From positions 151,339-215,338 of the forward strand of contig CAZYIA010000001.1 of the NCBI GenBank assembly GCA_964646765.1: a stretch of 64,000 nt of DNA, read 5' to 3'. The stretch is from an uncultured Candidatus Saccharibacteria bacterium (GTDB lineage: Bacteria; Patescibacteriota; Minisyncoccia; Phycocordibacterales; UBA9973). The notes beneath the pieces were generated by a model. It was not told the DNA's origin. It did not search any database and worked only from the letters and a program-made list of their open reading frames with translations. Of this stretch, positions 6,928 through 25,152 are shown one piece after another. The position numbers and the translations under genes were made by a program. Position 1 is the first letter of the stretch; the number at the start of each line of letters is the position of its first letter.

Positions 6928-9900
6928 ATGGAGGTTAAAAAATTTTTGCAGGCATATTTTGCGCTGTTTCTCGTTGTGTTTTTTATTAGTTTTCTCTCAT
7001 TACCAGTATCAGCTAAAGCATCGACTCTTGTTGATACAGATATAACAGCTGATACCATATGGACTACTTCAGGAGACCCATATATTATTTCTGGACCAAT
7101 TTCAATTTCAGAACAGGCCACTCTCACCATCTCAAAAGGTGTGATAGTTAAGTTTCTTGATCCGTTATCGAGCCTGACAGTTTCAGGAGCTCTCCTAGCT
7201 CAGGGAACTAAAAATAAGCCAATTTATTTTACCTCGTACCAAGATGACACCATTGGTGGGGATACAAACCATGACTACCAAGATTCACTACCGTATCCAG
7301 GAGATTGGGACGGTATTGTTTTTGATAATACTGGTACATCAAGTTCACTTTTAAACGTTAAAATTACCTACGCTGAGAATGGTGTCACTGTTTGGGGAGC
7401 CCATTTAGTAGGAGAAAACATTTCCTGCTTAAATACTAATGGATGTTTTAATGTTTCAAATGGGGAATTATCGATCAATGGATTTCTCTCAGAAGGAGTT
7501 TCAGGAACTATATTCAATTTATATCAAAGTTCACTTTCTTTGGGGCAAGCGCTGATCCATAATATAGAAATAAGTCTTAATCCTTTTGCTCAATATATTA
7601 TTGACGGCTATGCCAGTAATGTTTCGCTCAATAATGTAACTATTGGTACAGTACCTGATCCGGTAAATGGAATAACTTTATTTAGTGGAAGTTCATTTCA
7701 AGCATCTAATTTAACTTTTGACTCACAGAGCAGTCGTGACGCCATAACGATTTTTAATGACAGCACCATTTCTCTTACTGATACTGTAATTAAAAAAACA
7801 ACCCCAGGGTTCTATGAGAGTGGGCTCTTGTTTTTCAATCATGCCGAAGCGGTGCTTACTAATGTAAAGGTTAATGGATTTGGTAACACAGGTATTTATG
7901 ATCTCGGATCGCAGAGTGGTTTTGGATCAAATGTGCTTTCGATGAATCGTGTTGAAGTTGACCATAATAATATTGGTTTTGGAGTTGATGATGGATTAGT
8001 GACACATGTAACAGACGTTTCAGTGCACAATAACGGCTATGCGCTCTTTGCTTATACAGATGTTCCCGTGGAATTTAAAAATGTGTGGTGGGGAAGTGAA
8101 AGTGGTCCAAATTATACGACAACCCCAACAGGAAGTAACAATGAAGTTTTTGGGCTTATAGACTATACGCCATGGGCAACAATTGATCCGTTTAATCCAG
8201 TTCCGACACAGTACTTTGCCAAAATTACAAGTATTCCTGGTGGAGTCGCAAAACTTTATGAATCTCCAAGTATAAGTGGGATATTAGTAAAAACTCTACC
8301 AAATGATTGGGTCGTGAAAGTGATTCAAAGAACACTTGATAATGGTCAGCCAGCAATTTCTGATGGTTATCGATGGTATAAGGTTGAAGATCCAACAGAT
8401 GGTTCGCAAATGTGGATGTTTGCTGGGCCAGAAATCGGCGCCGGTTCGCCATTTTTGCCATATGACTCAAGTTTGCAACAAAATTTACAGCATATTTCTT
8501 CTGATATTTTAAACACGAAAGCGTTGCGACGAGAAGCAATCCTAGAAGCGGTAGATCATTACTATAATGATACGAGTACCAACCCGTCATTGTATAGTTC
8601 GGATGATTCTCAAACAATTTCACTTCTTAAACAAATAAACATGCCAAAAGAAGTTTTACTAGCAATTATTTCCCAAGAATCTGGAATAGTAAATTTTGAT
8701 AATGAGAATGTGAGTTATGACTACGGTCACGGAGCGATGCAGATAACATTTAAAGCGTGGTCAAATGAAAATACCGCTAAAGGATATTCATATAAGAATA
8801 ATGATTGGGATAATCGAGGAGCGATGAGTCTAGTTACGCTAAGTAAATGTAAAAATTGGGATAAAAATATTTCCGGAATACAAAAAGGTGTAAATGATTA
8901 TGAAAGATGTTACGAAAATGCTGGAGGATATAATAAACTTCTAAAACCATATAAAAATTATGAGGATATTTCTACAAATCCAAGATATAAGCAATATACA
9001 AATACAGTCCAGTCGTTTTACGCGAATATTAAGGATGGACTTGGAGACCTTAGTAAGAAGTTTAATCTAACTCGTTCATGCCCTCATTCTAGTTTTACTA
9101 TTGAAAGTCTTACTTTCTCTTGTGAAGATGTACAGAAAATTCTTATGGTGTGGGCATATAACGGTCTCGGATTTGATAAAAAAACGAATCAATATACCGG
9201 AACTTACCTTCATGATATTTCGCAGAAACTAGCTAGTTTAAATAAAAATTTCTCTGGTATCAACTATTCCAATACAGACCAACTTATAGAAAAACTTGAG
9301 GTTGCTAATAAAAACAGAAAAACTATCAAAGTGTATAGTCCTGTAAAATTAAAAGTAACTGACTCAGAAGGGGATATTACGGGAATAAATGATGGTTTAG
9401 CAGTAGTTGATATTCCTAATTCAGTTTACGATGCTGATGCCGAAGCTGTCACTATTTTATTTCCAGAAGATACCTACGCATACCAGGTAGTGGGAGATTC
9501 TCAAGGAGGTTCTTATGGTCTTTCAGTCGAAAGTCTTAATAATAATGTAAAGATAAATTTCCTAGCAACAGATATTCCAATTACAACAGGTGAAATTCAT
9601 ACATATCATATCGACGAAGCTGCGCTGGCTTCGGGTGAAGATGGGGTAATGGTAGATATAGATAAGAATGGTGATGGTATTCCAGAGCGCACAGTTATGG
9701 CTGGACCAAAGCTTACCAGTCTCTCATATCAGTTTGATGGTTTTAAACCCCTACTTGATGGTAAGACATTCAAAAAGAACAAATCGCTTAATATTAAGTT
9801 TAGAGTGAAATCAAAAAATGGTATCCTTGTTCCATTACTTCATCCAACACTTTCAATTGTAAGAATTTCAGACGGTTTTCATGCAGATGTAAACCCAAGT

Positions 9901-10071
9901 ACATTCGAAGAAGATCCTGATTGCGATCCAGATGATAACTGCTTTAAAGGAAATCATAATCGCTACCGGTATATTCTTCCAGGAAGTACTCTCACACCTG
10001 GTACTTGGAAAGTCACGGTAGGATTAGATGATGGGAGTAGTTATAGTGCGGTAATAAATATCATCAACTAA
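6928..10071 (+). CDS. Secreted 1047-aa multidomain cell-wall-targeting protein: signal peptide, beta-helix region, SH3b-like domain, SLT lytic transglycosylase domain, C-terminal Ca-binding-like region
   Basis: N-terminal signal (LSLPVSAKAS). Repeated NGxT/NNIGFGVDDG pectate-lyase-type repeats. SH3b-like YFAKITSIPGGVAKLYESPSISG..YRWYKV. SLT motif LLAIISQESG..GHGAMQIT. DKNGDGIPE loop. Confidence 0.75.
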   Translation: MEVKKFLQAYFALFLVVFFISFLSLPVSAKASTLVDTDITADTIWTTSGDPYIISGPISISEQATLTISKGVIVKFLDPLSSLTVSGALLAQGTKNKPIYFTSYQDDTIGGDTNHDYQDSLPYPGDWDGIVFDNTGTSSSLLNVKITYAENGVTVWGAHLVGENISCLNTNGCFNVSNGELSINGFLSEGVSGTIFNLYQSSLSLGQALIHNIEISLNPFAQYIIDGYASNVSLNNVTIGTVPDPVNGITLFSGSSFQASNLTFDSQSSRDAITIFNDSTISLTDTVIKKTTPGFYESGLLFFNHAEAVLTNVKVNGFGNTGIYDLGSQSGFGSNVLSMNRVEVDHNNIGFGVDDGLVTHVTDVSVHNNGYALFAYTDVPVEFKNVWWGSESGPNYTTTPTGSNNEVFGLIDYTPWATIDPFNPVPTQYFAKITSIPGGVAKLYESPSISGILVKTLPNDWVVKVIQRTLDNGQPAISDGYRWYKVEDPTDGSQMWMFAGPEIGAGSPFLPYDSSLQQNLQHISSDILNTKALRREAILEAVDHYYNDTSTNPSLYSSDDSQTISLLKQINMPKEVLLAIISQESGIVNFDNENVSYDYGHGAMQITFKAWSNENTAKGYSYKNNDWDNRGAMSLVTLSKCKNWDKNISGIQKGVNDYERCYENAGGYNKLLKPYKNYEDISTNPRYKQYTNTVQSFYANIKDGLGDLSKKFNLTRSCPHSSFTIESLTFSCEDVQKILMVWAYNGLGFDKKTNQYTGTYLHDISQKLASLNKNFSGINYSNTDQLIEKLEVANKNRKTIKVYSPVKLKVTDSEGDITGINDGLAVVDIPNSVYDADAEAVTILFPEDTYAYQVVGDSQGGSYGLSVESLNNNVKINFLATDIPITTGEIHTYHIDEAALASGEDGVMVDIDKNGDGIPERTVMAGPKLTSLSYQFDGFKPLLDGKTFKKNKSLNIKFRVKSKNGILVPLLHPTLSIVRISDGFHADVNPSTFEEDPDCDPDDNCFKGNHNRYRYILPGSTLTPGTWKVTVGLDDGSSYSAVINIIN

Positions 10072-12466: not shown

Positions 12467-13549
12467 ATGGCAAAAGACTACTACAAAGTATTAGGCGTTG
12501 AACGAGGTGCAACAAAGGAAGACATCAAGAAAGCCTTCCGTAAATTGGCGCATCAGTATCATCCAGACAAAAATAACGGGGACGATAAGAAGTTTAAGGA
12601 AGTGAACGAAGCGTACCAAGTGCTCTCTGATGACCAGAAACGCGCCCAGTACGATCAATTTGGTTCTGACTTCCAAGGATACGCAGGTGGCCAAGGAAAT
12701 CCATTCCAGGGCGGTTTTGGTGGCTTCAATCAAGGTGGCTTTAACGTGAACTTTGAAGATCTTGGTGACTTAGGTGAAATGTTCGGCTTCGGCGATATTT
12801 TTGGTGGTGGCGGACGTGCCCGCGAGGCTCGCGGCCGTGATATTGCAACTGAAATCAATGTCTCGTTTAAAGACGCTGCGTTTGGAACTGAACGCCGAGT
12901 GCTCTTAACTAAAACGTCACTTTGTCACGTATGTGCAGGAAGCGGCGCAAAGCCAGGGACGAAAAAGAAAACTTGTACGAAATGTAACGGTAAAGGCCAG
13001 GTGCGCGAAACTCGAAATTCATTCTTTGGTCAAATTGCTACAACCGCAGTTTGTTCGACGTGTCAGGGAAGTGGTGAAATTCCGGAAACTCCATGTACTA
13101 ACTGTCACGGTGCTGGTGTAGAAAATCGCCAAGAGGAAATTACTATCGTTATTCCAGGCGGCATTGAAAATGGCGAAATGATTCGTATGACCGGTATGGG
13201 CGAGGCCGTAAAAAATGGCACAGCTGGAGATTTGTATGTAAAAGTAAATGTCTCGTCTGATCCGGTATTTAAACGAAACGGTAAAGACATTCACATGACA
13301 CTTCCAATTAAGCTTACTGAAGCTCTACTTGGATCTGTGAGAAAAGTAGCGAGCCTCGATGGAGTAGTTGAAGTTACTATTCCTGAAGGAGCGCATCACG
13401 GTCAGCAAATCAGAATTAAAGGAGAGGGCATTATGGCCGAGCGCGGACGCCGCGGAGATATGGTAGTTTCGCTTGATATTGCACTGCCAAATAAACTCTC
13501 TAAAAAAATGCGCGAACTGGTTGAGAAAATGAAAGAAGAAGGAATGTAG
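12467..13549 (+). CDS. dnaJ: Chaperone DnaJ (Hsp40)
   Basis: J-domain YYKVLGV..HPDKN; G/F-rich region; four CxxCxGxG zinc-finger repeats. Confidence 0.95.
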
Positions 13550-13552
13550 AAT

Positions 13553-13592
13553 AAAAAGTGCCGCGAGGGAAATCCAAGCGGCACTTTTTATA
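13553..13592. terminator. Bidirectional intrinsic terminator
   Basis: AAGTGCCGC..GCGGCACTTTTTTAT between convergent genes. Confidence 0.6.
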
Positions 13593-13606
13593 TTTCGTGG
13601 TTCGTA

Positions 13607-14071
13607 TTACGCAGTTATTTTTTCTTCATACCACTTTAGGAAAGGGTAGTCAGAATCTTCGGGTAACAGCTCGGTGAGGAGCTTGCTGAGGTATAGATGT
13701 TCCGGTTTTCCAATTTTTATTGGAGTACATCTGCGTGCGTAGAATGGAAGCATTAGCGTGTTTTCTACTGAGTAATCAATTGTCTTTTTACTGCCAGTAC
13801 GTTTCTTAATGGGGGTAATTGATACCCATTCATCAGTGCCGAGTGTGCGTTCTTGGGTAATTTGCTGAATGAAAGAAAGGTAGAGTGTAATATTTTTCAG
13901 TCGTTTCAGAAAGTAGCTATTAAGCTTTTTGCCTGTTCGTAGGTCAGTGTGGATAGTATGTAAGGCGTACAGAAATTCATGCAGCAGGATATTTTTAGAA
14001 AAATTTTTCTTAATTATTTCCCACTGCTGATTCTCCTGTGTCATTTCGAGTAAAGTTGTTAGTTTATGCAT
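13607..14071 (-). CDS. Hypothetical protein (154 aa)
   Basis: ORF with its own terminator; no family recognised. Confidence 0.5.
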   Translation of the reverse strand: MHKLTTLLEMTQENQQWEIIKKNFSKNILLHEFLYALHTIHTDLRTGKKLNSYFLKRLKNITLYLSFIQQITQERTLGTDEWVSITPIKKRTGSKKTIDYSVENTLMLPFYARRCTPIKIGKPEHLYLSKLLTELLPEDSDYPFLKWYEEKITA

Positions 14072-14206
14072 CGTCTTTAGTTTTTATTCCATCAAAAAAT
14101 ACACCATTTTAACCTAATAGGTCAAGGAAATTCTTGCCCGACCCCTGTGGATAAAGGGCTTTTTTGTATTTACATCCTCGCGCTACGTGTTACTATGGCG
14201 CCATAA

Positions 14207-15580
14207 ATGAAAAGGAACTGGAAAAAATTTTGGAAGCTCGGGGTTGAGGAATTCAACACCCAGTACTTTGGCTTAACGAAAGACGGCGAGCTTACCGTGT
14301 CGGAAGGTAACTACGTGTACACGCTCTACGATTTGGTTAAGAAGTATGGTTCACCGGCAAAAATCTACTTTCCGTTTATTTTGGAAAACCGTCTTCGTGA
14401 CCTCATTGAATACTTTAACGCCTACATTAAAATCAACGGCTACAAAGGTAAGTTTTTCTACCACTACCCAATGAAGGTTAACCAGAACCGTGAAGTGGTG
14501 CTTCCACTTGTGGCTGATGGTGCTCACCTCGAAGTAACTTCGTCCAACGAACTTTGGATTGTGAAGAAGCTTTGGGAAGGTGACAAATTCCACGAACGTC
14601 TCCGAGTGCTCTGTAACGGTCCAAAAACTGAGGAATACATTAATCTTATTTTTGAACTCCGTAGTAAGGGTTTAAACATTATCCCAATTATTGAAACCGA
14701 AGGGGAAATGGTTGCTCTTGAAAAGTATAAAGGTGATATCGGTGTACGAGTTGATTTGGCTATTAAAGCTGATACTCATTGGGATAAAAAAATTGACCGT
14801 TTTGGCCTTTCTGAAAAGCGTGTGCTTGAGCTTCCAAAAATGAAGAACTTAAAACTTCTTCACTACCACATTGGTTCACAGGTTCGTACTCAAAAAAGTT
14901 TGCTCGACGCGGTAAAACGCGGCTTCATGATTTATAGCGAGCTTGCTAAAAAGCATCCAAGTCTGGATACGCTCGACGTTGGCGGTGGTTTTTCGGTGCC
15001 GTACGAAAAGAAAAAACTCTACACTGCAAAAACGATGGCAAACCAAATTGTGAAGCTTTTGAAGAATCTTTCTGAAAAAGCCGGCATTCGTCATCCGAAC
15101 ATTGCCGTTGAGTGGGGCCAGTACGTTGTGGCTCCTGCACAGGTAACGGTGTATAAAGTGATTGCCGAAAAAGATATTCCAAAAGGAAATGCTAAAGCTT
15201 GGTACATTGTTGATGGCAGCTTTATGAATGATCTCACCGACACCTGGGCGATTCACCAAAAGTGGCATGTAGTACCAGTAAATAATGCGACACGAGGTGA
15301 AATGCAGCGCGTGTGGCTTGCCGGAAGTACCTGCGACTCAGACGATAAATACACTGCTGGTGGTAACTATATTTTGTTGCCAAAATTGAAGGAAGGTGAA
15401 GATCAGTATGTGGCAGTATTTGATACCAACGCATACCAAGAATCACTCGCTTCACACCACTGCTTGTTGTCGCAACCTGCGAAATTACTTGCTCAAGATG
15501 GTAGTATTAAAGTGATTCGCAAAAAAGAAACTGCTGAATCAATTGGAAAACTCTTCGGCTGGTCTAACGGCGAAAAGTAA
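14207..15580 (+). CDS. speA: Biosynthetic arginine decarboxylase-like PLP enzyme (fold III, SpeA type), short 457-aa form
   Basis: HYHIGSQ and LDVGGGF motifs. N-terminal ILENRLRDLIEYF resembles SpeA ILQHRLRSINAAF. Lacks the long C-terminal domain of E. coli SpeA. Confidence 0.65.
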   Translation: MKRNWKKFWKLGVEEFNTQYFGLTKDGELTVSEGNYVYTLYDLVKKYGSPAKIYFPFILENRLRDLIEYFNAYIKINGYKGKFFYHYPMKVNQNREVVLPLVADGAHLEVTSSNELWIVKKLWEGDKFHERLRVLCNGPKTEEYINLIFELRSKGLNIIPIIETEGEMVALEKYKGDIGVRVDLAIKADTHWDKKIDRFGLSEKRVLELPKMKNLKLLHYHIGSQVRTQKSLLDAVKRGFMIYSELAKKHPSLDTLDVGGGFSVPYEKKKLYTAKTMANQIVKLLKNLSEKAGIRHPNIAVEWGQYVVAPAQVTVYKVIAEKDIPKGNAKAWYIVDGSFMNDLTDTWAIHQKWHVVPVNNATRGEMQRVWLAGSTCDSDDKYTAGGNYILLPKLKEGEDQYVAVFDTNAYQESLASHHCLLSQPAKLLAQDGSIKVIRKKETAESIGKLFGWSNGEK

Positions 15581-15606
15581 ACGTTATCGGTAATTTTTTA
15601 AAAACT

Positions 15607-16581
15607 ATGGCACACAAAATTGATCTTGCCTGGATTGAGGCAAACTACTATCACTTTAATGCTGGCGCACTCACTCGCGCGACCAAGGATTATATCGATC
15701 ACCTTAAAAGTGGCGGCAAAATGCTCGTAGCAATGGCTGGAGCAATGTCTTCAGCTCGCTTGGGTGTAACGCTTGCACCGATGATTCGCGAAGGTAAAGT
15801 GCATGCAGTTTCTTGTACCGGTGCAAACCTCGAAGAATCAGTATTTCGCTTGGTTGCTCACGATAGCTACCATCTCTTCCCAAACTATCGCTATTTCACT
15901 AAGGAAGATGACACCAAAATTTTAGACGACGGCCACCGCCGCGTTACCGATATGTCGATTCCTGAAGAAGAAGCATTTCGAAAAATTGAAGCACTTATTG
16001 TAAAGCGCTGGAAAGCGGCTGAAGAAAAAGGTGAGCGTTATTTCCCGCACGAATATTTTTACCAGCTCCTTCTTTCCGGTGAACTAAAAGATCTTTACGA
16101 AGGAAAACCTGAAGAATGTTGGCTTTTAGCTGCCGCAGAAAAGAATTTGCCGATTGTGGTTCCAGGTTGGGAAGACTCAACACTCGGAAACATTTTTGCT
16201 GGGTACTGTAAGCGCGGGGAAGTAAAGCCACAGGTTATGAAGAGTGGTATTGAATATATGATGTACCTCTACGATCAGTATAAGGAACTTGCAAAGGCTG
16301 GTTCTGGCCTCGGTTTCTACCAAATTGGTGGTGGTATTTCAGGAGATTTCCCAATCTGTGTTGTGCCTTCGATCAAGTACGATCTCCAAGAAGAAGTTCG
16401 CCCATGGGGTTACTTCTGCCAGATTTCTGACAGTACTACTTCATACGGTTCATATTCTGGTGCTACACCAAACGAAAAAATTACCTGGGACAAGCTCACG
16501 AAAGATACTCCAATGCACGTTATTGAGTCAGATGCCACAATTGTCTGCCCAATAATGTTTGAAGCGATTCTCAATAGTTAA
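15607..16581 (+). CDS. Deoxyhypusine synthase-like protein (DHS/homospermidine synthase family)
   Basis: VAMAGAMSSARLGVTLAPMIREGKVHAVSCTGANLEE has the DHS-family NAD/spermidine-binding core; 324 aa. Confidence 0.7.
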   Translation: MAHKIDLAWIEANYYHFNAGALTRATKDYIDHLKSGGKMLVAMAGAMSSARLGVTLAPMIREGKVHAVSCTGANLEESVFRLVAHDSYHLFPNYRYFTKEDDTKILDDGHRRVTDMSIPEEEAFRKIEALIVKRWKAAEEKGERYFPHEYFYQLLLSGELKDLYEGKPEECWLLAAAEKNLPIVVPGWEDSTLGNIFAGYCKRGEVKPQVMKSGIEYMMYLYDQYKELAKAGSGLGFYQIGGGISGDFPICVVPSIKYDLQEEVRPWGYFCQISDSTTSYGSYSGATPNEKITWDKLTKDTPMHVIESDATIVCPIMFEAILNS

Positions 16582-16593
16582 TTTATTTAAGTA

Positions 16594-16632
16594 AAAAAGC
16601 CTGACTGATAGATTTAGTCAGGCTTTTTTCTT
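16594..16632. terminator. Bidirectional intrinsic terminator
   Basis: AAAAAGCCTGACT..AGTCAGGCTTTTTT. Confidence 0.6.
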
Positions 16633-16641
16633 TTGTCTTTG

Positions 16642-17388
16642 TTACACAAGACTTCCGATTTCTAAGCCAAGAAATTTACTTGCCGATTGGCCTTGCATCA
16701 TTACTTCCAAAAATCGTTTTTCTTTATACCCAGAACTCCCTCTGACAAAAGCAGGAATATTGTTTTTAGGAACATCAGCTAATTTTTCGTAGTAGACGTT
16801 GTCGAGTGAAGTATAGCTATTCAAGTTAACTCGTTTTCCAGTTGAAGTAGTTTTACAATTACCAAAGCAGTCAATTCGCCAAATAAAGTTTTGTTTACCA
16901 AAATCTTCTATCTCGATTTCATGAGAAGGAATATTGTTGCCCCCAAGAATCCATTGAGTGAGGTGAGGTAAATATTCATAACTTCTAAATTGGGATTCCG
17001 AGGTTCTCTTAGCCTCTCTTTTCGTGAGGAACTTACTGCAAACTTCTAAAACATCTGTTTGGTATGTTTTTGAGAATAGCCCTAGCTTTTTTGCCAGCGA
17101 AAAACAATTTGGTGTACCAATGACTACTATTTTTCCAAAAGTATGAAAACAGAAGGGAATTCCGTTTGAGTACTTTTCTTTATTGCCTCGAGGGGCAACG
17201 TTTACCACAATAACGGCAGGTTGGCCTTTTCGAGCATCGATGGCGTCAATAAGCTCTCCCTGGGCTTCTAAGTCGGTACAAGCACCGATAAATGTTTGAG
17301 ACACGTTACCTAAGAGTGCTTGGTAGCGGCTTTGCTGTCTCCCACGAGCATTGTCGTCTTGGCAATCAGAAATGATGGTTAGTTGCAT
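16642..17388 (-). CDS. DUF62-like SAM hydroxide adenosyltransferase (SAM hydrolase) family protein
   Basis: N-terminal LTIISDCQDD. VIVVNVAPRG resembles the VDPGVG region. IDCFGNCKTT resembles the DUF62 C-domain IDxFGNLITN. Inference from motif similarity. Confidence 0.5.
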   Translation of the reverse strand: MQLTIISDCQDDNARGRQQSRYQALLGNVSQTFIGACTDLEAQGELIDAIDARKGQPAVIVVNVAPRGNKEKYSNGIPFCFHTFGKIVVIGTPNCFSLAKKLGLFSKTYQTDVLEVCSKFLTKREAKRTSESQFRSYEYLPHLTQWILGGNNIPSHEIEIEDFGKQNFIWRIDCFGNCKTTSTGKRVNLNSYTSLDNVYYEKLADVPKNNIPAFVRGSSGYKEKRFLEVMMQGQSASKFLGLEIGSLV

Positions 17389-17581
17389 AGTTTTAAGTTT
17401 TAAATGAACAAAAAACAGCCTTTTCGGGGCTGCTTTTTACATTTCATTGATGTACGAGAGTGTTCTAGTTCATGCAATGCAATAAGCAACCCCGAGTTCT
17501 GGGCTGTTCATCATTGCCATCATGTTCTGTGAATTGCGTTGCATAAAATTAGTTAAACATCTCCACCTTAAAAAGTCAAAA

Positions 17582-18493
17582 TTAACTAAAGTGTCTCGCT
17601 AAAATGTTGTAGCAAATTTGGGCGGCGCCAAATTCAGTGCGAACGTCATCTTTGGCTGGTGAAACCTCAACAATATCAAAGCCAATCAGTTTTTTAGTTG
17701 CGCCAATTTTGTTAAAAAGTTCCCAGGCAAAATACCAATCAAGGCCGCCTTGTACTGGTGTACCAGTTGCTGGCATAAATCCTGGATCGATACCGTCTAC
17801 ATCAATAGAGAGATAGATGTACTTGGTTTTAAGAGCAGCAATAATTTTTTCAAGAGTCGGTCGTTCCTTTTTTGACCATTCGAAGATAGTAATTTGGCCA
17901 GGTTTACTAGCCGCATACTCAAACTCTTCTGTGCTTCCTGTGCGGATGCCAACTGAAACAATGTTATAGCCCATTTCTCCTGCATGGCGCATAACGGTTG
18001 AGTGAGCGAAGTTTGAAGGGTGAGTGCTGTAATCGGCGTCAGAAGAGCGCATATCCAGGTGGGCATCAATGTGAAGAATAGTTACTTCTTTCGGACTATA
18101 CTTTTCTTTAAGCGACATAAGGGCGCCAATGGTCATTGAGTGTTCGCCGCCGAGCATTACTGGAAGAGAACCAGCCTGTACAATTTTTTTATGAGCAGCA
18201 TAAAGTTTGCCAACCGCCTTTTCTGGATTTGAAACCAAGTTTAGTGCTTTGAGAGAATTGTCGAGAGCAACGGTAAAATTTTCGATTGGTTCCGAATTCA
18301 TCTCGCGATCATAAAACTCAATTTGATGATCGAGACAATCTGCGATAACGCCAGGGCCCTTTGCTGTGCCTTTTCGAAATGATGCCGTGCGGTCGTAGGG
18401 AGCTAAAAGGAGAGTAGCGTCTGCTTTAGCGCCTTTTTTCCCGTTAATAATGGAAGCTATTTTTTGCATGGCGCTATCATAACATACAAGCAA
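17582..18493 (-). CDS. speB: Agmatinase / arginase-family ureohydrolase
   Basis: GGEHSMTIGA, DAHLD and SIDVDGIDP manganese-binding signatures. Confidence 0.8.
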   Translation of the reverse strand: MLVCYDSAMQKIASIINGKKGAKADATLLLAPYDRTASFRKGTAKGPGVIADCLDHQIEFYDREMNSEPIENFTVALDNSLKALNLVSNPEKAVGKLYAAHKKIVQAGSLPVMLGGEHSMTIGALMSLKEKYSPKEVTILHIDAHLDMRSSDADYSTHPSNFAHSTVMRHAGEMGYNIVSVGIRTGSTEEFEYAASKPGQITIFEWSKKERPTLEKIIAALKTKYIYLSIDVDGIDPGFMPATGTPVQGGLDWYFAWELFNKIGATKKLIGFDIVEVSPAKDDVRTEFGAAQICYNILARHFS

Positions 18494-18588
18494 GACTGGC
18501 TCTAGACACTGAACGACTTGTAGTGTCTTGTTATTGTGTATGGTATAATTATGGCTTACTAAAACAAAGGAAAGGGATAGTATATGAC

Positions 18589-19638
18589 ATGGATGAGTCT
18601 GTAATTAAACAAAGCCCAGAGTATAGTAATCACGAAGTCGTAGAATACTTTACTGACCCAAAAACAGGATTGCGGGGGATTATTGCTCTGCATTCACGAA
18701 AGCGTGGCCCAGCAGTTGGTGGTACGCGTTACTATGCATATACGACAGACGAAGATGCGCTTGAAGATGTGTTGAAACTTTCTCGAGCGATGTCATATAA
18801 ATGTGCACTCGCTAACGTACCTTATGGAGGGGGAAAGTGTGTTTTAATTGCACCTCCTCACTCAGGAAAGAAAACTAAAGAGTATCTCGAGTCGTACGGA
18901 AAAATGCTTAAAAAGTACGAAACTGATTTTTATACTGGCGAAGACGTTGGTATGGCTCAGGAAGATATTGAAGAGTTAAGTACAGTAACCTCAAATATTA
19001 TTGGCACTCTTGCAAAGGCCGGTGATCCTTCACCTTGGGCTGCTTTCTCAGTTTTTTATGCACTCCGCGCAGCGCTTACCTTTGTATATGGCGAACCTTC
19101 ATTTCAAGGAAAGAAAATTTCTATCAAAGGTCTAGGAAAAGTTGGCATGGAACTTGCTCGATTGGTGAGTGAACAAGGCGCGGTTCTTACGGTAACTGAT
19201 GTTAATCAATCTCTCATTGATGAAGCGCTTAAGAGATTTCCTGGAACCATAGCTTCTACGCCTAACGATATTGTAAATGTTCCTTGCGATGTTTTTGCTC
19301 CATGCGCATTAAGTAAAGATATTACCAATGAGCGAGCAAAAACGATTCAGGCAAAAGTAATTTGTGGAGCAGCTAATAATCAACTCGAATCAGATGCTGC
19401 AGGCGTTACACTTTTTGAGCGAGGAATTATGTATGTTCCGGATTACATTGCTAATGCTGGTGGCTTAATTAATGTAGTTGCTGAGCTTGAAAAGGATGGT
19501 TACAACCGAGAAAATGTCGTGAAGAAATGTCAGCATATTGAGGAGGTTGTTGCTTCTGTTTTGCAAGAAAGTAAAGAAAAGAGCATTGCACCCAATATTG
19601 TAGCGGATACTATCGCCAAAAGAGTGCTTGCAGCATAG
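18589..19638 (+). CDS. Leucine/phenylalanine dehydrogenase (Glu/Leu/Phe/Val dehydrogenase family)
   Basis: GPAVGGTRYYAYTTDEDALEDVLKLSRAMSYKCALANVPYGGGK; Rossmann GLGKVG. Start set at the internal ATG 18589 downstream of the extended -10 TGGTATAAT (18540..18548). Confidence 0.8.
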   Translation: MDESVIKQSPEYSNHEVVEYFTDPKTGLRGIIALHSRKRGPAVGGTRYYAYTTDEDALEDVLKLSRAMSYKCALANVPYGGGKCVLIAPPHSGKKTKEYLESYGKMLKKYETDFYTGEDVGMAQEDIEELSTVTSNIIGTLAKAGDPSPWAAFSVFYALRAALTFVYGEPSFQGKKISIKGLGKVGMELARLVSEQGAVLTVTDVNQSLIDEALKRFPGTIASTPNDIVNVPCDVFAPCALSKDITNERAKTIQAKVICGAANNQLESDAAGVTLFERGIMYVPDYIANAGGLINVVAELEKDGYNRENVVKKCQHIEEVVASVLQESKEKSIAPNIVADTIAKRVLAA

Positions 19639-19641
19639 TGT

Positions 19642-21150
19642 ATGGCAGCAAAGCGATACCAACTAAAGAACAACCGAGTCTTAGCTGATCTCAAATTAAA
19701 AAAGAGTGCCTACTGGCAAAAAAAGCGAGAGGCGCATGCACTTTCAGTATTTAAGGATACTATTGCACATGTTCCTGCCTACCGAGATTTTCTTAAAAAG
19801 AATGGTATTAATCCTTCCAAAATAAAAAATTGGAAAGATTTTCAAACGCTTCCGATAATGACTAAAGACTCATATCTCCGAAGCTATGAACTCCAGGAAC
19901 TTTGCAAAAAGGGAACACTCGCGCATCCTTTAGTATTTACTTCAACTTCAGGATCAACAGGAGAACCATATTATTTTCCGCGCTTTGAAAAACTAGATCG
20001 TGAATATTCAGTACTCGCTGAGTTTTACATGAGTCAGCACAAAGAGACGCTAAAGGGTCCAACGCTGGTGGTAATTTGTTTTGGTATGGGAGTCTGGATT
20101 GGTGGACTGATTACCTACCAAGCGTTTGAATCAGCAAGTCGTGAAAGTGGTTACCCAATTTCTATTATCACACCGGGAACGAATAAAGATGAGATTATCA
20201 AAGTTTTGGCGTCTCTTTCGCCACGATTTTCGCAAACACTGCTTATTGGATATCCGCCATTTGTAAAAGACATTATCGATGAAGCATCGCGCAAGAAAAT
20301 TCCGCTCAAGAAATATAATCTTCGATTGATGTTTGCCGCAGAATCTTTTTCGGAAACATTTCGTGATTATCTTGCTCGAAAAGCTGGTATCGAAAATGTG
20401 TATCGCGACACCTTAAATATTTATGGTAGTGCCGACATTGGTGCGATGGCCTGGGAAACTGGAGTTTCAATTTTAATTAAGCGCTTGTTGAAGAAAAATA
20501 AAAAGCTTTACAGTGCTTTCTTTCCGTCAGTTTCGCGAATGCCAACGCTTGCACAGTACAATCCTGAATTTATTACTTTTGAATCTATTGATAACAAGAT
20601 TGCATTAACTGCTAATAATGCGCTGCCGCTTGTTCGTTATGCTCTTGGAGATCATGGGGGCGTGATTGATTTTGCTAAGGCGCAGCGTATCTGTAAAGAA
20701 CACGGATATGATTTACTCGCAGAAGCAAAAAAAGTGGGAATTCCGACGGTGCCTGAACTACCATTTGTGTATGTATATGAGCGAAGCGATTTCTCGACAA
20801 AACTCTATGGGGCGATTGTTTATCCAGAATATATCAAAGGAGCGCTTGAACGAGATGAATTTGCTGATGTACTCACTGGTAAGTTCACGATGTTCACCCG
20901 CAATGGAAAAAATCAGGATCAATATCTTGAAGTGAATGTTGAACTCACGCCTGAAGTTAAAGAGTCAGCGGAACTTGCTGCTCAGGTTTCCGACCGCATT
21001 TTTGAGGAACTTATTGAACGAAGCACGGAATGCCGAAATAACGCTCAACTTCTTGGCGACAAAATGAAGCCAAAAATCATTTTTTGGCAGAACGGTGACC
21101 CAACTTACTTCAAAACAGGTATTAAGCAAAAATGGGTAAAAAAGGCCTAA
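19642..21150 (+). CDS. PaaK / coenzyme-F390-synthetase-like adenylate-forming enzyme
   Basis: P-loop FTSTSGSTGEPYYFP. N-terminal AHVPAYRDFLKKNGINPSKIKNWKDFQTLPIMTKDSY matches the PaaK-family N-domain. Confidence 0.7.
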   Translation: MAAKRYQLKNNRVLADLKLKKSAYWQKKREAHALSVFKDTIAHVPAYRDFLKKNGINPSKIKNWKDFQTLPIMTKDSYLRSYELQELCKKGTLAHPLVFTSTSGSTGEPYYFPRFEKLDREYSVLAEFYMSQHKETLKGPTLVVICFGMGVWIGGLITYQAFESASRESGYPISIITPGTNKDEIIKVLASLSPRFSQTLLIGYPPFVKDIIDEASRKKIPLKKYNLRLMFAAESFSETFRDYLARKAGIENVYRDTLNIYGSADIGAMAWETGVSILIKRLLKKNKKLYSAFFPSVSRMPTLAQYNPEFITFESIDNKIALTANNALPLVRYALGDHGGVIDFAKAQRICKEHGYDLLAEAKKVGIPTVPELPFVYVYERSDFSTKLYGAIVYPEYIKGALERDEFADVLTGKFTMFTRNGKNQDQYLEVNVELTPEVKESAELAAQVSDRIFEELIERSTECRNNAQLLGDKMKPKIIFWQNGDPTYFKTGIKQKWVKKA

Positions 21151-21200
21151 AATACTGTTTCTTTGGCTCAATATACGATATACTTTTGCTAGTTTAGGCC

Positions 21201-22385
21201 ATGAAGGAAGTAATGGATTACATCGAGGAAGGTCTTCAGAGAAAAGCTGCCGTACAACCGGTATTTTTCCGTCTCTCACAAAAAGAAGATGCCGACAAAC
21301 TCAAGGCTTTATTTGAAGCAGGGAAAATACAGCGAGTTTCAGACGATTACAAAGAACAGCAACTTGAGCTTTTTGGAATTAACAATCCAACAAAAGTATA
21401 TCAACCAGGTTTTAAAGAATTGTTTGCGGAATATTTCAGTGCATTAGAGCAACAGCAACCGCTAGCTACCCACGGCATCTGGGTTTATTTTCCATGGTCT
21501 TCGACGTTGACGCATATCTTGGAAGAAAAAGAATTTCAACTCGTTCGAACAGCGCGCAATCGCAACCTTATCAACAGCGACGAACAGGAAAAATTTCATA
21601 ATGCCACTATCGGTATTGGTGGACTTTCTGTTGGTTCGAGTGTTGCTTTTGCTTTAACGCTTCAGGGCGGCCCAAAGCACATTAAATTAGCTGACATGGA
21701 TCGCTTTGCGCTCACTAATACAAATCGCGTGCTCATGGGTGTGGATTATCTTGGCGAACTGAAAGTAGAAATGGCCGCTCGCCGAATCTATGAAATAAAT
21801 CCGTATACGACCATTGAACTTTTTCCTGAAGGATTGCATAAAGAAAATATTGAGCGATTTTTTGACGGTCTCGATCTGGTGATTGATGAGCTCGATAACC
21901 TCGCCGTAAAGTATTTGATTCGCGTTGAAGCACAAAAGCGAAAATTACCAGTAGTTATGGCGGCAGATAACGGAGATAATGCAGTCGTTGATATTGAACG
22001 CTACGACCTCGATCCTAACTTAAAGTTTTTCCAAGGACGACTTGGCGAAACTTCATATGAAGAGCTCGCTAGTTTAGATAAATTTGGCATTGGTAAAACT
22101 ATTACCAAACATATTGGTCCTGAAAATGTAACCGCGCGAACCCAGGATTCTCTTTTGGAGATGGGGAAGACGATTGTTTCGTGGCCACAGCTTGGCGGAG
22201 CAGCGCTTATTAACGGTGCAGCGGTAGCGTACTGTGTCCGAAAGATTTTAAATGGCCAACCACTTGAACATAACCGGGCTCTTGTTTCGCTCGACGAAAA
22301 ACTTGTTCCAAATTATAACGCTCCGGAAGAAGTGGAGAATCGCGCTAAAGTATCTGAATCATTTAAGAAAATTTTTGGTTTGTAA
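21201..22385 (+). CDS. ThiF/MoeB (E1-like) adenylyltransferase-fold protein with an N-terminal extension of about 130 aa
   Basis: Rossmann IGIGGLSVGSSVAFALTLQGG..KLADMDRFALTNTNRV. Confidence 0.7.
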   Translation: MKEVMDYIEEGLQRKAAVQPVFFRLSQKEDADKLKALFEAGKIQRVSDDYKEQQLELFGINNPTKVYQPGFKELFAEYFSALEQQQPLATHGIWVYFPWSSTLTHILEEKEFQLVRTARNRNLINSDEQEKFHNATIGIGGLSVGSSVAFALTLQGGPKHIKLADMDRFALTNTNRVLMGVDYLGELKVEMAARRIYEINPYTTIELFPEGLHKENIERFFDGLDLVIDELDNLAVKYLIRVEAQKRKLPVVMAADNGDNAVVDIERYDLDPNLKFFQGRLGETSYEELASLDKFGIGKTITKHIGPENVTARTQDSLLEMGKTIVSWPQLGGAALINGAAVAYCVRKILNGQPLEHNRALVSLDEKLVPNYNAPEEVENRAKVSESFKKIFGL

Positions 22386-22390
22386 TTATC

Positions 22391-23461
22391 ATGGAGGAAG
22401 ACCTTAAAAAAATTCTTGAAAGTGCGATTCAAGCTCCGTCGGGAGAAAATTCTCAACCTTGGCGAGTTAAAGTTTCTGGAATGACTGTTGAACTCTGGAA
22501 TAATCCAGAAAGTGATCAGTCACTCTATAACAGCGGACAATTAGGTTCCATGATTGCCCACGGTGCTTTTATTGAGAATGCCGTAATAGCTGCTAAACAC
22601 TATGGCTACGAGACCGGAGTGGCTTTGTTTCCTAATAAAGAAAATCTTAATCAAGTAGCAGTACTTTCATTTTCAAAGAAGGCTACTCAAACAGAAGATA
22701 TTCTGTTTTCTTTAATTGAAAAACGTTGTACAAATCGTAAATCCTACAAGACTGATGCGGTAGAAGCAGCCGTTGCGAATGATCTTATTTCTGGTTCTTC
22801 TGGAAACGTAAAAATATACGTCACCCAAGAAACAGAAGCCAAAGAAATACTCGGTGCAGTCGGAGGAGCTAATGAGCAAATCATGCTCTCCAACGAATAT
22901 ATCCACGGTTTTTTCTTTTCTCATGTTAGCTGGACCAAAGAAGAGGATCGAGAGCGATCAGTTGGTTTTTTTATTGACACTCTTGAGTTACCAGCACCGG
23001 CTCGTTTTGCTTTTAAATTTATTCAAAAATGGAATCGGCTGGCGTTTCTTAATAAATACTTAGGACTATATAAGGCTATTGGGAAACAAAATGCAAAAGT
23101 ATATGGAGAAGCTTCCGGATTTTTAGCGTTTACAGTTCCAGCTAATTCTCCTGAGTCATTTGTAGAAGCGGGAAGAATTATCGAACGCACTTGGCTTGTA
23201 GCAACTAAGCATGGTTTAAGTATGCAACCAGTGAGTGGTCTTCTTTTTTTAAGAAACGCAATGCTCAGAAATGATACAGCCACTTTCTTTAATGATGAAC
23301 AGCGCATAACAATAACGGAAGCGTACCAGAATATCCAAAAAGTATTTAGTCTACCTGAGAATGAAACGGTTGCATTCATGTTTCGCTTTGGACGATCAAA
23401 TCCACCCACCGCTCGAGCATCTCGCTTTCCTCTTGAAAAAATAATGTACAATGCTTCTTAA
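22391..23461 (+). CDS. Tandem two-domain nitroreductase-family (SagB/Acg-like) protein
   Basis: ILESAIQAPSGENSQPWRVKV nitroreductase N-terminal motif; 356 aa, consistent with a duplicated nitroreductase fold. Confidence 0.65.
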   Translation: MEEDLKKILESAIQAPSGENSQPWRVKVSGMTVELWNNPESDQSLYNSGQLGSMIAHGAFIENAVIAAKHYGYETGVALFPNKENLNQVAVLSFSKKATQTEDILFSLIEKRCTNRKSYKTDAVEAAVANDLISGSSGNVKIYVTQETEAKEILGAVGGANEQIMLSNEYIHGFFFSHVSWTKEEDRERSVGFFIDTLELPAPARFAFKFIQKWNRLAFLNKYLGLYKAIGKQNAKVYGEASGFLAFTVPANSPESFVEAGRIIERTWLVATKHGLSMQPVSGLLFLRNAMLRNDTATFFNDEQRITITEAYQNIQKVFSLPENETVAFMFRFGRSNPPTARASRFPLEKIMYNAS

Positions 23462-23463
23462 TC

Positions 23464-25152
23464 ATGTTTAACGCGTATTCATCCAACTCAAACTTTAATC
23501 TTCTTATTGTCGGTGTTGCAATTGCGGCTATTGCGTTACTCGGTTTTACCGTCTTCTTTAACGATCGTAAAAGCAGAACAAATCGTGCCTTTTTCTACTA
23601 CGCAATCGCAGTGGTATTCTGGGGTATTTCAAACTATCTTGAATATCAATTTCAGTCTCCCACGATTGTCCTTTTTGCTTTACGAGCGCATATCGCGATT
23701 TCTGTATTGTATTGTCTTACCTTTTTCCGTTTAGCATATGTATTCCCATGGAGTGAAGTTACTTTTCCGCGTTGGCATCGGTTTTTTGTTTTTCCTCTAG
23801 CGCTCGTTACTATGGTGGTAGCTTTTACACCGCTTACTTTTAAACGCATTCTATCTTTAGCTCCGGTTGGAGAAGTAACGCCTGCACAAACTGGGCCGGG
23901 AATGGGCTTTTTTGGAATCATGGCATTTGGTCTACTTGTTGGCGGCCTTGCCATACTTTGGAGAAAGCGAAATAAAAGTTCTGGAGTAGAGAAGAAACAA
24001 ATTACATATGTCTGGTGGGGGATGCTTATTACTGCACTTCTAACTTTAACCTTTAATTTTGTTTTACCAGTTCTCTTTAATAACGTACGCTATATTCCAT
24101 TTGCCGCTCTCTTTGTTCTGCCGTTTATTTCTCTCATTTCATACACTATTTATCGACATCAGCTCTTTAACGTTAAAGTTGCTGCCGTTGCCCTCGTTAC
24201 CTTTATTCTTACCGTCTTCAGTCTCTTCAACGTTATCTACGCAACAAGCACAAGCCAAGTTGTCTTCAATGTTATTTTCTTCACTTCAATCTTGGCCGGA
24301 AGCGTTCTTCTCATTCGCAGTATTCTTCGAGAAATTGAACAGCGAGAAAAATTAGAGATTTTAGATAAAGAACTCGAAACTGCAAACGAAAAATTAAAAG
24401 AGCTTGATAAGCTGAAGACCGAATTTCTTTCCCTTGCTTCTCATCAATTGCGAAGTCCACTCACCGCTGTAAAAGGCTACACATCGATGCTCTTGGAAGG
24501 AGACTTCGGCGCTGTGAATCCGCAACAAAAAGAGGCTATTGACCGCGTGTATCAGTCGGTAACCCACCTTACTCGTGTTGTGGAAGATCTTCTTAATGTT
24601 ACTAAGATTGAACTTGGTGGTATGCAGTACACCATGCGCCCGTTTGACCTCGATACAGCAACCGAAGAACTTGTTTCGGAACTTCGAGTGACAGCCGAAA
24701 AGAAAGGACTCAAACTTATTTTTGATTGCGACACCAAGAAGAGCTACCCAATATTGGGTGACGAAGAGAAGCTCCGCCAGGTATTTCTTAACTTTATTGA
24801 TAACTCAATTAAATATACCGAAAAAGGCGAAGTTCGTGTTTCAGTTACGAAAGACACTGCTAAAAATCAAATTACTTTTGCAGTTACAGATACTGGTATG
24901 GGTATGACTCCTGAGACTCAGGCTAGCCTCTTCCAGAAATTTGTCCGTACAGACAAATCAAAAGAAGTTAACCGTGGTGGCTCGGGTCTTGGTTTGTATC
25001 TCGCAAAGCAGATTGTTGAGGCCCATCATGGCAGTCTCATTGTTTCTTCTCCAGGTGTTGGAAAAGGTTCCACGTTTGGCGTCGTGCTCTCACTTGCCTC
25101 ACCATCAACTTCATCAACAGAGTGGAAGAGTGGTAGTGAAAAAAACGCTTAG
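23464..25152 (+). CDS. Sensor histidine kinase with a multi-TM N-terminal domain (no cognate response regulator adjacent)
   Basis: At least 7 hydrophobic helices; HisKA FLSLASHQLRSPLTAV; HATPase_c region. Confidence 0.85.
   Translation: MFNAYSSNSNFNLLIVGVAIAAIALLGFTVFFNDRKSRTNRAFFYYAIAVVFWGISNYLEYQFQSPTIVLFALRAHIAISVLYCLTFFRLAYVFPWSEVTFPRWHRFFVFPLALVTMVVAFTPLTFKRILSLAPVGEVTPAQTGPGMGFFGIMAFGLLVGGLAILWRKRNKSSGVEKKQITYVWWGMLITALLTLTFNFVLPVLFNNVRYIPFAALFVLPFISLISYTIYRHQLFNVKVAAVALVTFILTVFSLFNVIYATSTSQVVFNVIFFTSILAGSVLLIRSILREIEQREKLEILDKELETANEKLKELDKLKTEFLSLASHQLRSPLTAVKGYTSMLLEGDFGAVNPQQKEAIDRVYQSVTHLTRVVEDLLNVTKIELGGMQYTMRPFDLDTATEELVSELRVTAEKKGLKLIFDCDTKKSYPILGDEEKLRQVFLNFIDNSIKYTEKGEVRVSVTKDTAKNQITFAVTDTGMGMTPETQASLFQKFVRTDKSKEVNRGGSGLGLYLAKQIVEAHHGSLIVSSPGVGKGSTFGVVLSLASPSTSSTEWKSGSEKNA

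Follow-up and report, generated by a model that had tools for sequence, protein, structure and literature searches.

The closest described systems

The CdmS protein of Thermus thermophilus, a homolog of deoxyhypusine synthase (DHS), joins two agmatines into caldomycin, which is N1,N9-bis(guanidino)homospermidine (diagmatine, G44G) (PMC10981699). SpeY homologs from diverse phyla all make G44G from agmatine as well, and none of them needs putrescine; their partner arginine decarboxylases (ADCs) belong to three different folds, one being the alanine-racemase (AR) fold of a short ADC in Winogradskyella, and the SpeB homologs associated with them hydrolyse G44G, not agmatine (PMC13625781). We analysed a stretch of 64,000 nucleotides (the window) on contig CAZYIA010000001.1 of an uncultured Candidatus Saccharibacteria bacterium, in which positions 14207 to 18493 carry genes of the same three enzyme families, clustered as they are in the SpeY/CdmS systems, together with a fourth gene for a divergent protein of the DUF62 fold. 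We consider it likely that these genes form two independent functional units: a homospermidine pathway that does not depend on S-adenosylmethionine (SAM), and a DUF62-fold gene preceded by a methionine-sensing leader. The polyamine pathway itself is already known (2024-2026); new here are the host group, since Patescibacteria are not described as hosts of the SpeY pathway in the literature searched, and a divergent SpeY lineage. Our analysis extends the SpeY/diagmatine pathway to the Patescibacteria, and the probable methionine-codon attenuator is the more novel part.

For the fourth gene, the nearest described proteins are the DUF62 or (R)-SAM hydrolases, SalL and FlA. Canonical DUF62 enzymes release adenosine and L-methionine by hydrolysis of SAM, with a preference for the inactive (R)-sulfonium epimer. 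The leader in front of the gene is best compared with trpL, hisL, leuL, thrL and pheL. With these it shares a short open reading frame (ORF) with clustered regulatory codons, the 5' arm of an antiterminator inside that ORF and, directly ahead of the gene, an intrinsic terminator; it differs from them in its Met codons, in a target of the SAM-cleaving type instead of a biosynthetic operon, and in its Patescibacteria host.

A preliminary description of this DNA had listed four ORFs between 14207 and 18493, a gap of 26 nt between the first two, and the motifs ILENRLRDLIEYF, HYHIGSQ, GANLEE, NVAPRG and IDCFGNCKTT; translation bears out all of these. On the plus strand the decarboxylase gene (14207 to 15580, 457 aa) is followed, 26 nt on, by the gene for the DHS homolog (15607 to 16581, 324 aa). 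Convergent to this pair, as had been described, and both on the minus strand are the DUF62-like gene (16642 to 17388, 248 aa) and the gene for an arginase-fold ureohydrolase (17582 to 18493), the product of which has 303 aa from a TTG start or 295 aa from the ATG at 18469 that the gene callers use. The four ORFs are not chance ones, because all belong to large conserved families. Two sequencing runs yielded the same contig, and its relatives are metagenome-assembled genomes (MAGs) of Patescibacteria (Candidate Phyla Radiation, CPR). A search of plasmid and phage collections found no homolog, and no speD, speE or metK was found within the 64-kb window.

The polyamine module

The decarboxylase carries the Pfam domains PF02784 and PF00278. 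Against the NCBIfam SpeA models it scores 226.7 and 210.8 bits, and against LysA 164 bits, each time under the cutoff; for SpeA this is because the models describe the long form of about 630 aa. A comparison with solved structures puts E. coli SpeA first (E=8e-34), ahead of LysA (E=1e-24), so the earlier assignment to the SpeA type is upheld, and identity as LysA or ornithine decarboxylase was rejected since the SpeA models and the SpeA structure score better. The alignment to E. coli SpeA (666 aa) jumps from query 321/target 379 to query 333/target 486: the protein is without the four-helix bundle insert of about 100 aa, and without the C-terminal extension, of the long SpeA. YPMKVNQ (the motif of the lysine that binds pyridoxal phosphate, PLP), HYHIGSQ and CDSD align with SpeA. 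The 'ancestral' AR-fold ADC has the size of other AR-fold decarboxylases, with neither four-helix bundle nor C-terminal extension (PMC8503589; PMC13625781). By its sequence the window enzyme is a member of this known class, and it is the same kind of short ADC as that of the Winogradskyella speY-speB cluster. The length of 457 aa that had been remarked upon is correct, then, but because it matches a recognised class it is no anomaly. Family membership and context indicate that the enzyme would decarboxylate L-arginine. The short family is very large in Patescibacteria, with about 70% identity throughout.

The second gene had been placed in the DHS family, and its product indeed matches PF01916 with 120.8 bits over residues 16-319, a full-length domain. 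An alignment was made of CdmS, a cyanobacterial SpeY (CsSpeY), human and plant DHS and homospermidine synthase, and an archaeal DHS (full sequences from the supplement of PMC10981699) with the window protein and 27 of its relatives. The window protein and all clade members examined keep the equivalents of Lys329 (K299 of CdmS), Glu323 and Trp327 of human DHS. As in the SpeY/CdmS enzymes, the catalytic Lys and Glu are thus retained and both spermidine-binding aspartates are lost: in place of Asp243 the window protein has Asn and a few relatives have Gln or Ser (CdmS has Phe, CsSpeY Met), and in place of Asp316 the window protein has Tyr and a few relatives have Phe (CdmS and CsSpeY both have Leu). 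The archaeal DHS in the alignment is also without both aspartates (Thr/Leu), so non-acidic residues at these two positions are not fully diagnostic of SpeY. With eukaryotic and archaeal DHS the window protein shares the Pfam DS fold, the enzyme-imine lysine of human DHS and an equivalent of Glu137; it differs from them in its low identity (17% to human, 23% to archaeal DHS), in the lost aspartates and in an Asp at the position of His288. To our knowledge a target of the eIF5A kind is not to be expected in a bacterium. By analogy with the characterised enzymes we regard the window protein as SpeY-like and as a predicted G44G synthase.

The ureohydrolase matches PF00491 with 205 bits and TIGR01230, the agmatinase model, with 190 bits, over its cutoff of 174.3. 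Read from the translation, GGEHS, DAHLD and SIDVDGIDP, which we take to be the metal-binding motifs of the arginase family, are intact, and the closest solved relative is an agmatine ureohydrolase. We know of no published sequence discriminator between ureohydrolases specific for G44G and those specific for agmatine. The preliminary name of agmatinase holds for the family and for the TIGR01230 score; as to substrate, the association with SpeY makes a diagmatine (G44G) ureohydrolase more likely than an agmatine one.

Gene identities, folds and catalytic residues in the module are direct observations; the activities are taken from characterised homologs. On that footing the PLP decarboxylase would turn arginine into agmatine, the SpeY-type enzyme, with NAD+ and its conserved lysine, would join two agmatines into G44G, and the arginase-fold enzyme would remove two ureas from G44G to leave homospermidine. 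The agmatine-based, non-canonical polyamine route that had been suggested for these genes agrees with the SpeY/diagmatine pathway, which experiments published in 2024 and 2026 established (PMC10981699, PMC13625781).

The module recurs in other genomes. A Doudnabacteria contig has a tight operon of ADC, arginase and DS genes, and a Paceibacteria locus (L018) reads DnaJ-GNAT-ADC-SpeY-DUF62-like with a convergent ureohydrolase gene. Two sister genomes of the window (L178 and L179; SpeY 96.6% and ADC 90.6% identical) have ADC-SpeY and a convergent ureohydrolase gene with a bidirectional terminator between. Natural fusions of an AdoMet_dc-type decarboxylase with a DS domain, the latter 41-54% identical to the window SpeY, were found in a search of 1.84 billion representatives, and decarboxylase-SpeY fusions are a feature in common with the SpeY/CdmS system. 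In an archaeal contig such a fusion (DS part 54% identical) lies 18 nt from an arginase-family gene. The AdoMet_dc-type fold has been shown to be repurposed as a pyruvoyl ADC (PMC10407285).

The fusion proteins are P0298 (756 aa), P0297 (469 aa) and P0319 (453 aa), with loci L176 and L177. P0298 holds a methyltransferase domain resembling NNMT/PNMT between its decarboxylase and DS parts, and given an N-terminus that resembles an organelle-targeting presequence it may be eukaryotic; the contig of P0297 is archaeal, with Nop, fibrillarin and a TFIIS zinc ribbon. A 3.88-Mb contig (L173, ERZ21831265) encodes a SpeY homolog 75% identical to that of the window as well as a protein with a Por_Secre_tail, the sorting domain of the type IX secretion system (T9SS); no ADC or ureohydrolase gene lies within 8 kb of this homolog. 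In the GNAT family, the gene at 6754-7326 of L018, directly upstream of the ADC gene, may encode a polyamine N-acetyltransferase.

Because a 75% identical homolog occurs in a 3.9-Mb genome encoding a T9SS-sorted protein, the SpeY lineage is not restricted to the CPR, and to judge by the sequences such identity across phyla would imply either strong constraint or recent transfer. Close SpeY relatives within the Patescibacteria are likewise about 75% identical. An ADC gene was found within 6 kb of SpeY in none of 80 metagenome loci (SpeY 69-84% identical), and a cluster of ADC, SpeY and ureohydrolase genes as the general arrangement in Patescibacteria was rejected on this count. Beside these SpeY genes one usually finds what appear from their sequences to be housekeeping genes, among them SecG-like and RNase J-like genes and those for a solute-binding protein and an MFS transporter. 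The abundance of ADC and SpeY and their conservation (about 70-77%) suggest that SAM-free homospermidine is a core need of these minimal, largely auxotrophic cells.

The DUF62-like gene

The preliminary description had read the third protein as a DUF62-like SAM hydrolase on motifs. At the level of profile thresholds this fails: at E<=0.01 the protein has no Pfam or NCBIfam match, and the C-domain model PF20257 (SAM_HAT_C) gives 16.5 bits (E=0.011) where the gathering score is 25.5. Yet all 41 aligned relatives match PF20257 at E<=1 (best 3.8e-12), so that the assignment holds for the C-domain at family level. The N-domain model PF01887 matches neither the window protein nor any of the 41 relatives. 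A phmmer search of the Protein Data Bank (PDB) with the protein found nothing relevant, the family profile reached only PH0463 at E~0.6, and hhalign against fluorinase aligned the C-domain only, with low probability. Because direct sequence links failed, the decision came from a fold search. An AlphaFold (AF2) model from the family alignment (pLDDT 91.6, pTM 0.90) was compared with the PDB by Foldseek, and the top 34 matches are all DUF62 SAM hydrolases, chlorinases or fluorinases, matched over the full length of the two-domain fold (E 5e-11 to 1e-7, template modelling (TM) scores 0.58-0.69, probability 1.00) at only 12-17% identity.

In detail, D173, F175 and N177 align by hhalign with D210, F213 and N215 of fluorinase (the reference sequence being 100% identical to 1RQP), residues of the D..FGN motif that we take to bind adenine. 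By secondary-structure topology in the model, D8 after strand 1 would correspond to the ribose-binding Asp16 of fluorinase. Unlike the known enzymes, which have DPGVG in the catalytic loop together with an Asp-Arg-His triad, the window protein appears from motif and topology to have NVAPRG there, with Asn for Asp; Cys9 and Cys178, invariant in its family, also set it apart. We think it most likely, by analogy with DUF62 enzymes, that the protein cleaves SAM or a close adenosyl-sulfonium relative to adenosine and L-methionine. The family was found only in Patescibacteria MAGs among the searches made. In six of 80 family loci a tandem paralog stands beside the family gene; the one in L089 (10844-11671) encodes a second, more divergent protein of about 275 aa with 18 bits against SAM_HAT_C.

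Is this gene tied to the polyamine genes beside it? In 80 family loci from species-representative genomes a SpeY neighbour is absent from 76, being adjacent only in L015-L018, and no neighbour is conserved at all, the most frequent one occurring in 10 of the 80. Conversely, no DUF62-like gene lies within 6 kb of SpeY in any of the 80 SpeY loci. The sister genome L178 has the island without the DUF62-like gene, and L011 and L012, with a DUF62-like protein 77% identical to that of the window, have the gene without the island, adjoining CysS-CorA, a pair that in the window follows about 8 kb further along. Comparison of these genomes thus presents the DnaJ-CysS stretch as variable, with two units that come and go independently. 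The DUF62-like gene is most likely a separately regulated unit outside the polyamine pathway: the linkage to a SAM hydrolase pointed out earlier is real as adjacency, and would not extend to a part in the pathway.

The leader of the DUF62-like gene

A spacer of 193 nt (17389-17581, minus strand) separates the DUF62-like gene from the ureohydrolase gene, and as a single sequence it folds more stably than shuffled versions (z=-3.46). It holds, on the minus strand, a leader ORF of 24 codons (17470 to 17544) encoding MQRNSQNMMAMMNSPELGVAYCIA and a stop, with a cluster of Met codons at codons 8-12 (17523-17509). A long antiterminator hairpin (17424 to 17495) has its 5' arm inside this ORF and shares its 3' arm with an intrinsic terminator (17413 to 17435), the stem of which includes CAGCC/GGCUG and is followed by a U-run; the terminator ends about 20 nt before the start of the DUF62-like gene. 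A riboswitch was considered and rejected, there being no Rfam match at gathering thresholds and only chance-level matches at E<=10.

Seven other loci (L011-L014 and L019-L021) have the same leader, 85-95% identical in blocks, ahead of proteins that are only 48-77% identical, and with differing upstream genes (CysS, ArgS or DoxX where annotated). Conserved in all eight are an ORF of 24-29 codons, its frame, the position of its stop and the Met cluster, which reads MMAMM in the window and MMPMM, MMAVMM, MMM, MMNMMM, MFMMM or MMDMM elsewhere. RNAalifold independently recovers the hairpin, with its 5' arm in the 3' part of the ORF and a 3' arm that is the 5' arm of the terminator. Over the eight loci 93.8% of the antiterminator cells are paired, against 39-45% with partners slid, with three compensatory pairs, and 98.6% of the terminator cells, against 42-67%. 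In L021 there is a three-way covariation (columns 27/92/100), a change at the shared position being matched at both alternative partners.

Family-wide, we asked for an upstream small ORF with at least three Met in six codons. Such leaders precede 28 of 77 family loci and 10 of 1472 control upstream regions (0.7%; Fisher p=5e-31), and three of the ten control matches are duplicates of the window itself. Besides the window and the seven loci named above, 20 further DUF62-like loci have such a leader. Beyond the Met cluster these leaders share no sequence, but in 25 of the 28 a hairpin with a T-run lies ahead of the start codon. What follows the Met cluster is complementary to the 5' arm of the terminator beyond what shuffled sequences give (mean z=-2.27, p=1.5e-6), also in the 17 unrelated leaders alone (z=-2.22, p=1.8e-4). 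The controls contain just one other small ORF that is strongly Met-rich (MITTMMITMIMMMRMILTT...); it lies about 22 nt upstream of a ClpP-like gene in L083, and may be either chance or a second target of a Met leader.

The architecture of the leader and its enrichment are plain to see, and their sequence features make it probably a ribosome-mediated attenuator tuned to methionine. With Met-tRNA plentiful, the ribosome would read through the leader ORF and cover the 5' arm of the antiterminator, so that the terminator forms; with Met-tRNA scarce, it would stall on the Met codons, the antiterminator would form and the DUF62-like gene would be transcribed, its product then cleaving SAM or an adenosyl-sulfonium relative to adenosine and L-methionine. 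The gene would thus be induced when Met-tRNA is scarce, and the regulation fits the reaction, because a methionine-releasing enzyme would be switched on by methionine shortage. We found no published description of a Met-codon leader, in a literature that is incompletely searchable, and no Rfam family. On balance we lean towards a previously undescribed attenuator and, under its control, an enzyme induced by methionine starvation that cleaves SAM, possibly SAM imported from a host, so that these auxotrophic bacteria recover L-methionine and adenosine. Spermidine synthesis consumes SAM and the SpeY route does not, which is in keeping with an apparent economy of methionine in the organism, a link between the two units that is thematic and not mechanistic.

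The probable attenuator ahead of a divergent DUF62 gene is a clue to the cellular role of its family, and a rare defined regulatory mechanism in uncultured Patescibacteria. If our reading is right, it gives a physiological role to one branch of the long-enigmatic DUF62 family, and methionine joins the few amino acids for which sensing by ribosome-mediated attenuation is described.

Points against the proposal and alternative explanations

Several observations weigh against parts of the two-unit proposal. The DHS homolog is below all NCBIfam equivalog cutoffs, those for SpeY included (NF001980, 96.5 vs 450 bits; NF002699, 53.1 vs 500 bits), and its lineage is a deep branch of its own, only 23% identical to CdmS and 27% to CsSpeY, the two validated SpeYs compared. 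Its pocket (Asn, Tyr, and Asp at the His288 position, which is Asn in both validated SpeYs) is unlike either validated type. Since it stands on a separate deep branch and far below the curated models, G44G synthesis by this protein is an extrapolation, and we call the protein SpeY-like on grounds of mechanism and context while leaving it outside both curated equivalogs. By sequence the branch is a third SpeY lineage, one that also includes proteins from an archaeal contig and a Bacteroidota-like genome and that has neither a curated model nor a link, in the comparisons made, to a validated protein. The best 150 matches of the SpeY search among representatives did not reach canonical SpeY or DHS proteins. 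Unlike the genes of the SpeY/CdmS systems, moreover, the polyamine genes are dispersed in most Patescibacteria, with the compact island a minority arrangement, so the evidence from clustering comes from a minority of genomes. As for the DUF62-like protein, its chemistry may differ from hydrolysis, because Asn appears to replace the loop Asp and Cys9 and Cys178 are invariant. The covariation in its leader is modest, coming from eight similar sequences, and 11-15 of 500 shuffles reach the observed values. Finally, five genomes, which fall on two branches, do have the DUF62-like gene between those for SpeY and the ureohydrolase, and in L015 and L018 its start is 3 nt after the SpeY stop; a functional tie confined to such lineages is improbable but conceivable.

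The enzymes of the module could be arranged in another pathway, the one assumed for SpeY before 2024, in which putrescine comes from a true agmatinase, and homospermidine from the condensation, by the DHS-like enzyme, of two putrescines or of putrescine with spermidine. The TIGR01230 cutoff that the ureohydrolase passes would suit it, as would a SpeY lineage distinct from the validated ones that keeps Glu137 like true DHS. We hold this route to be unlikely, however: all tested bacterial SpeYs make G44G from agmatine with no need of putrescine (PMC13625781), the window protein has lost both of the aspartates with which true DHS binds the amines, and SpeY would be deprived of its substrate by a canonical agmatinase. 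More radically, the DHS-like enzyme might modify a protein (EF-P or another factor) in the manner of hypusine, with agmatine as donor and the ureohydrolase trimming the adduct. Its catalytic lysine is conserved, its conservation across Patescibacteria is very high (about 75% identity), and in most genomes its gene stands apart from those for the ADC and the ureohydrolase. Against this, the domain is found fused to, or clustered with, small-molecule decarboxylases and ureohydrolases, and neither EF-P nor another candidate target is a conserved neighbour of the SpeY loci. With, in addition, no bacterial precedent known to us for protein modification by a DHS-like enzyme, such a role is barely credible.

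The gene order between SpeY and ureohydrolase in the window and in L015-L018, with the 3-nt spacing in two of these loci, and the position of the SpeY-linked copies on two branches of the DUF62-like family tree with unlinked copies in between, could also mean that the DUF62-like enzyme works in the polyamine route, for example in a SAM-dependent modification of agmatine, G44G or homospermidine. This we find very improbable. The gene is absent from the island of the sister genome and from the Doudnabacteria and archaeal modules, the great majority of its own loci have no polyamine neighbour, and it has a methionine-specific leader, not the regulation of the polyamine genes. Because the adjacency to DnaJ is also retained between the window and L018, their synteny would be inherited regardless of function. 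A last alternative does away with the sensor: the Met-rich small ORF would encode a micropeptide, or the precursor of a ribosomally synthesised and post-translationally modified peptide on which the DUF62-like enzyme acts, or the hairpin would merely terminate the upstream gene. Within the close subgroup the peptide does conserve Cys12 and its C-terminal residues, the SN2 chemistry of DUF62 enzymes is open in principle to a peptide thiol, and the enzyme has its invariant cysteines. Those conserved residues coincide with RNA stems, however, and family-wide it is the Met cluster and the leader-terminator architecture that persist while the remaining peptide does not. As the element also travels with the DUF62-like gene whatever the upstream gene, and the antiterminator complementarity is significant among unrelated leaders, we judge these readings improbable and keep to a methionine-tuned attenuator.

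Other features and neighbouring genes

Just 5' of the decarboxylase start, a consensus scan found a promoter-like site on the plus strand, TTTACA-16-TACTAT with a TG extension (14169 to 14196); it is a weak candidate, such sites being rarer in the region than in shuffled sequence. Between the convergent SpeY and DUF62-like genes lies a bidirectional intrinsic terminator (16593 to 16629), a 16-bp hairpin flanked by an A-run and a T-run, and L178 has an analogous hairpin between its SpeY and ureohydrolase genes. The GC content is flat across the region (about 0.41-0.42), and horizontal transfer as a reading of composition was rejected.

From DnaJ to CysS-CorA (12467-26531 of the window) the sequence is variable when set against L178 and L006/L011. 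Four elements of it are present or absent independently of each other: an ORF of 154 aa without family (13607-14071), the polyamine island, the DUF62-like gene and an accessory gene set. The accessory set beside the island (18523-23461, plus strand) has four genes, for a ScyB-like amino-acid dehydrogenase (NF035922, 287 bits, below cutoff), a PaaK/ANL-like ligase of 502 aa without Pfam match, and a ThiF-type E1-like enzyme and a nitroreductase that between them correspond to both halves of the Rv1355c family. It may be, to judge by these sequences, a cassette for the modification of small molecules or peptides. L178 is without the four genes and has instead an EamA gene and two uncharacterised genes. 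SpeY of L178 is 96.6% identical to that of the window but the ureohydrolase only 70%, which suggests that the right-hand part was replaced by recombination.

Transporters of the EamA/DMT family adjoin the island or the DUF62-like gene in L018 (11742-12680), L178 (13297-14292) and L006 (14788-15759). The SAM importers of rickettsiae belong to this family, and, speculatively, these transporters might import SAM that feeds the SAM-cleaving enzyme. Further upstream in the window (6928-10071, plus strand) a predicted secreted protein of 1047 aa is followed by a membrane-anchored protein of 212 aa; the sister genome has a similar pair, of 1131 aa and 216 aa.

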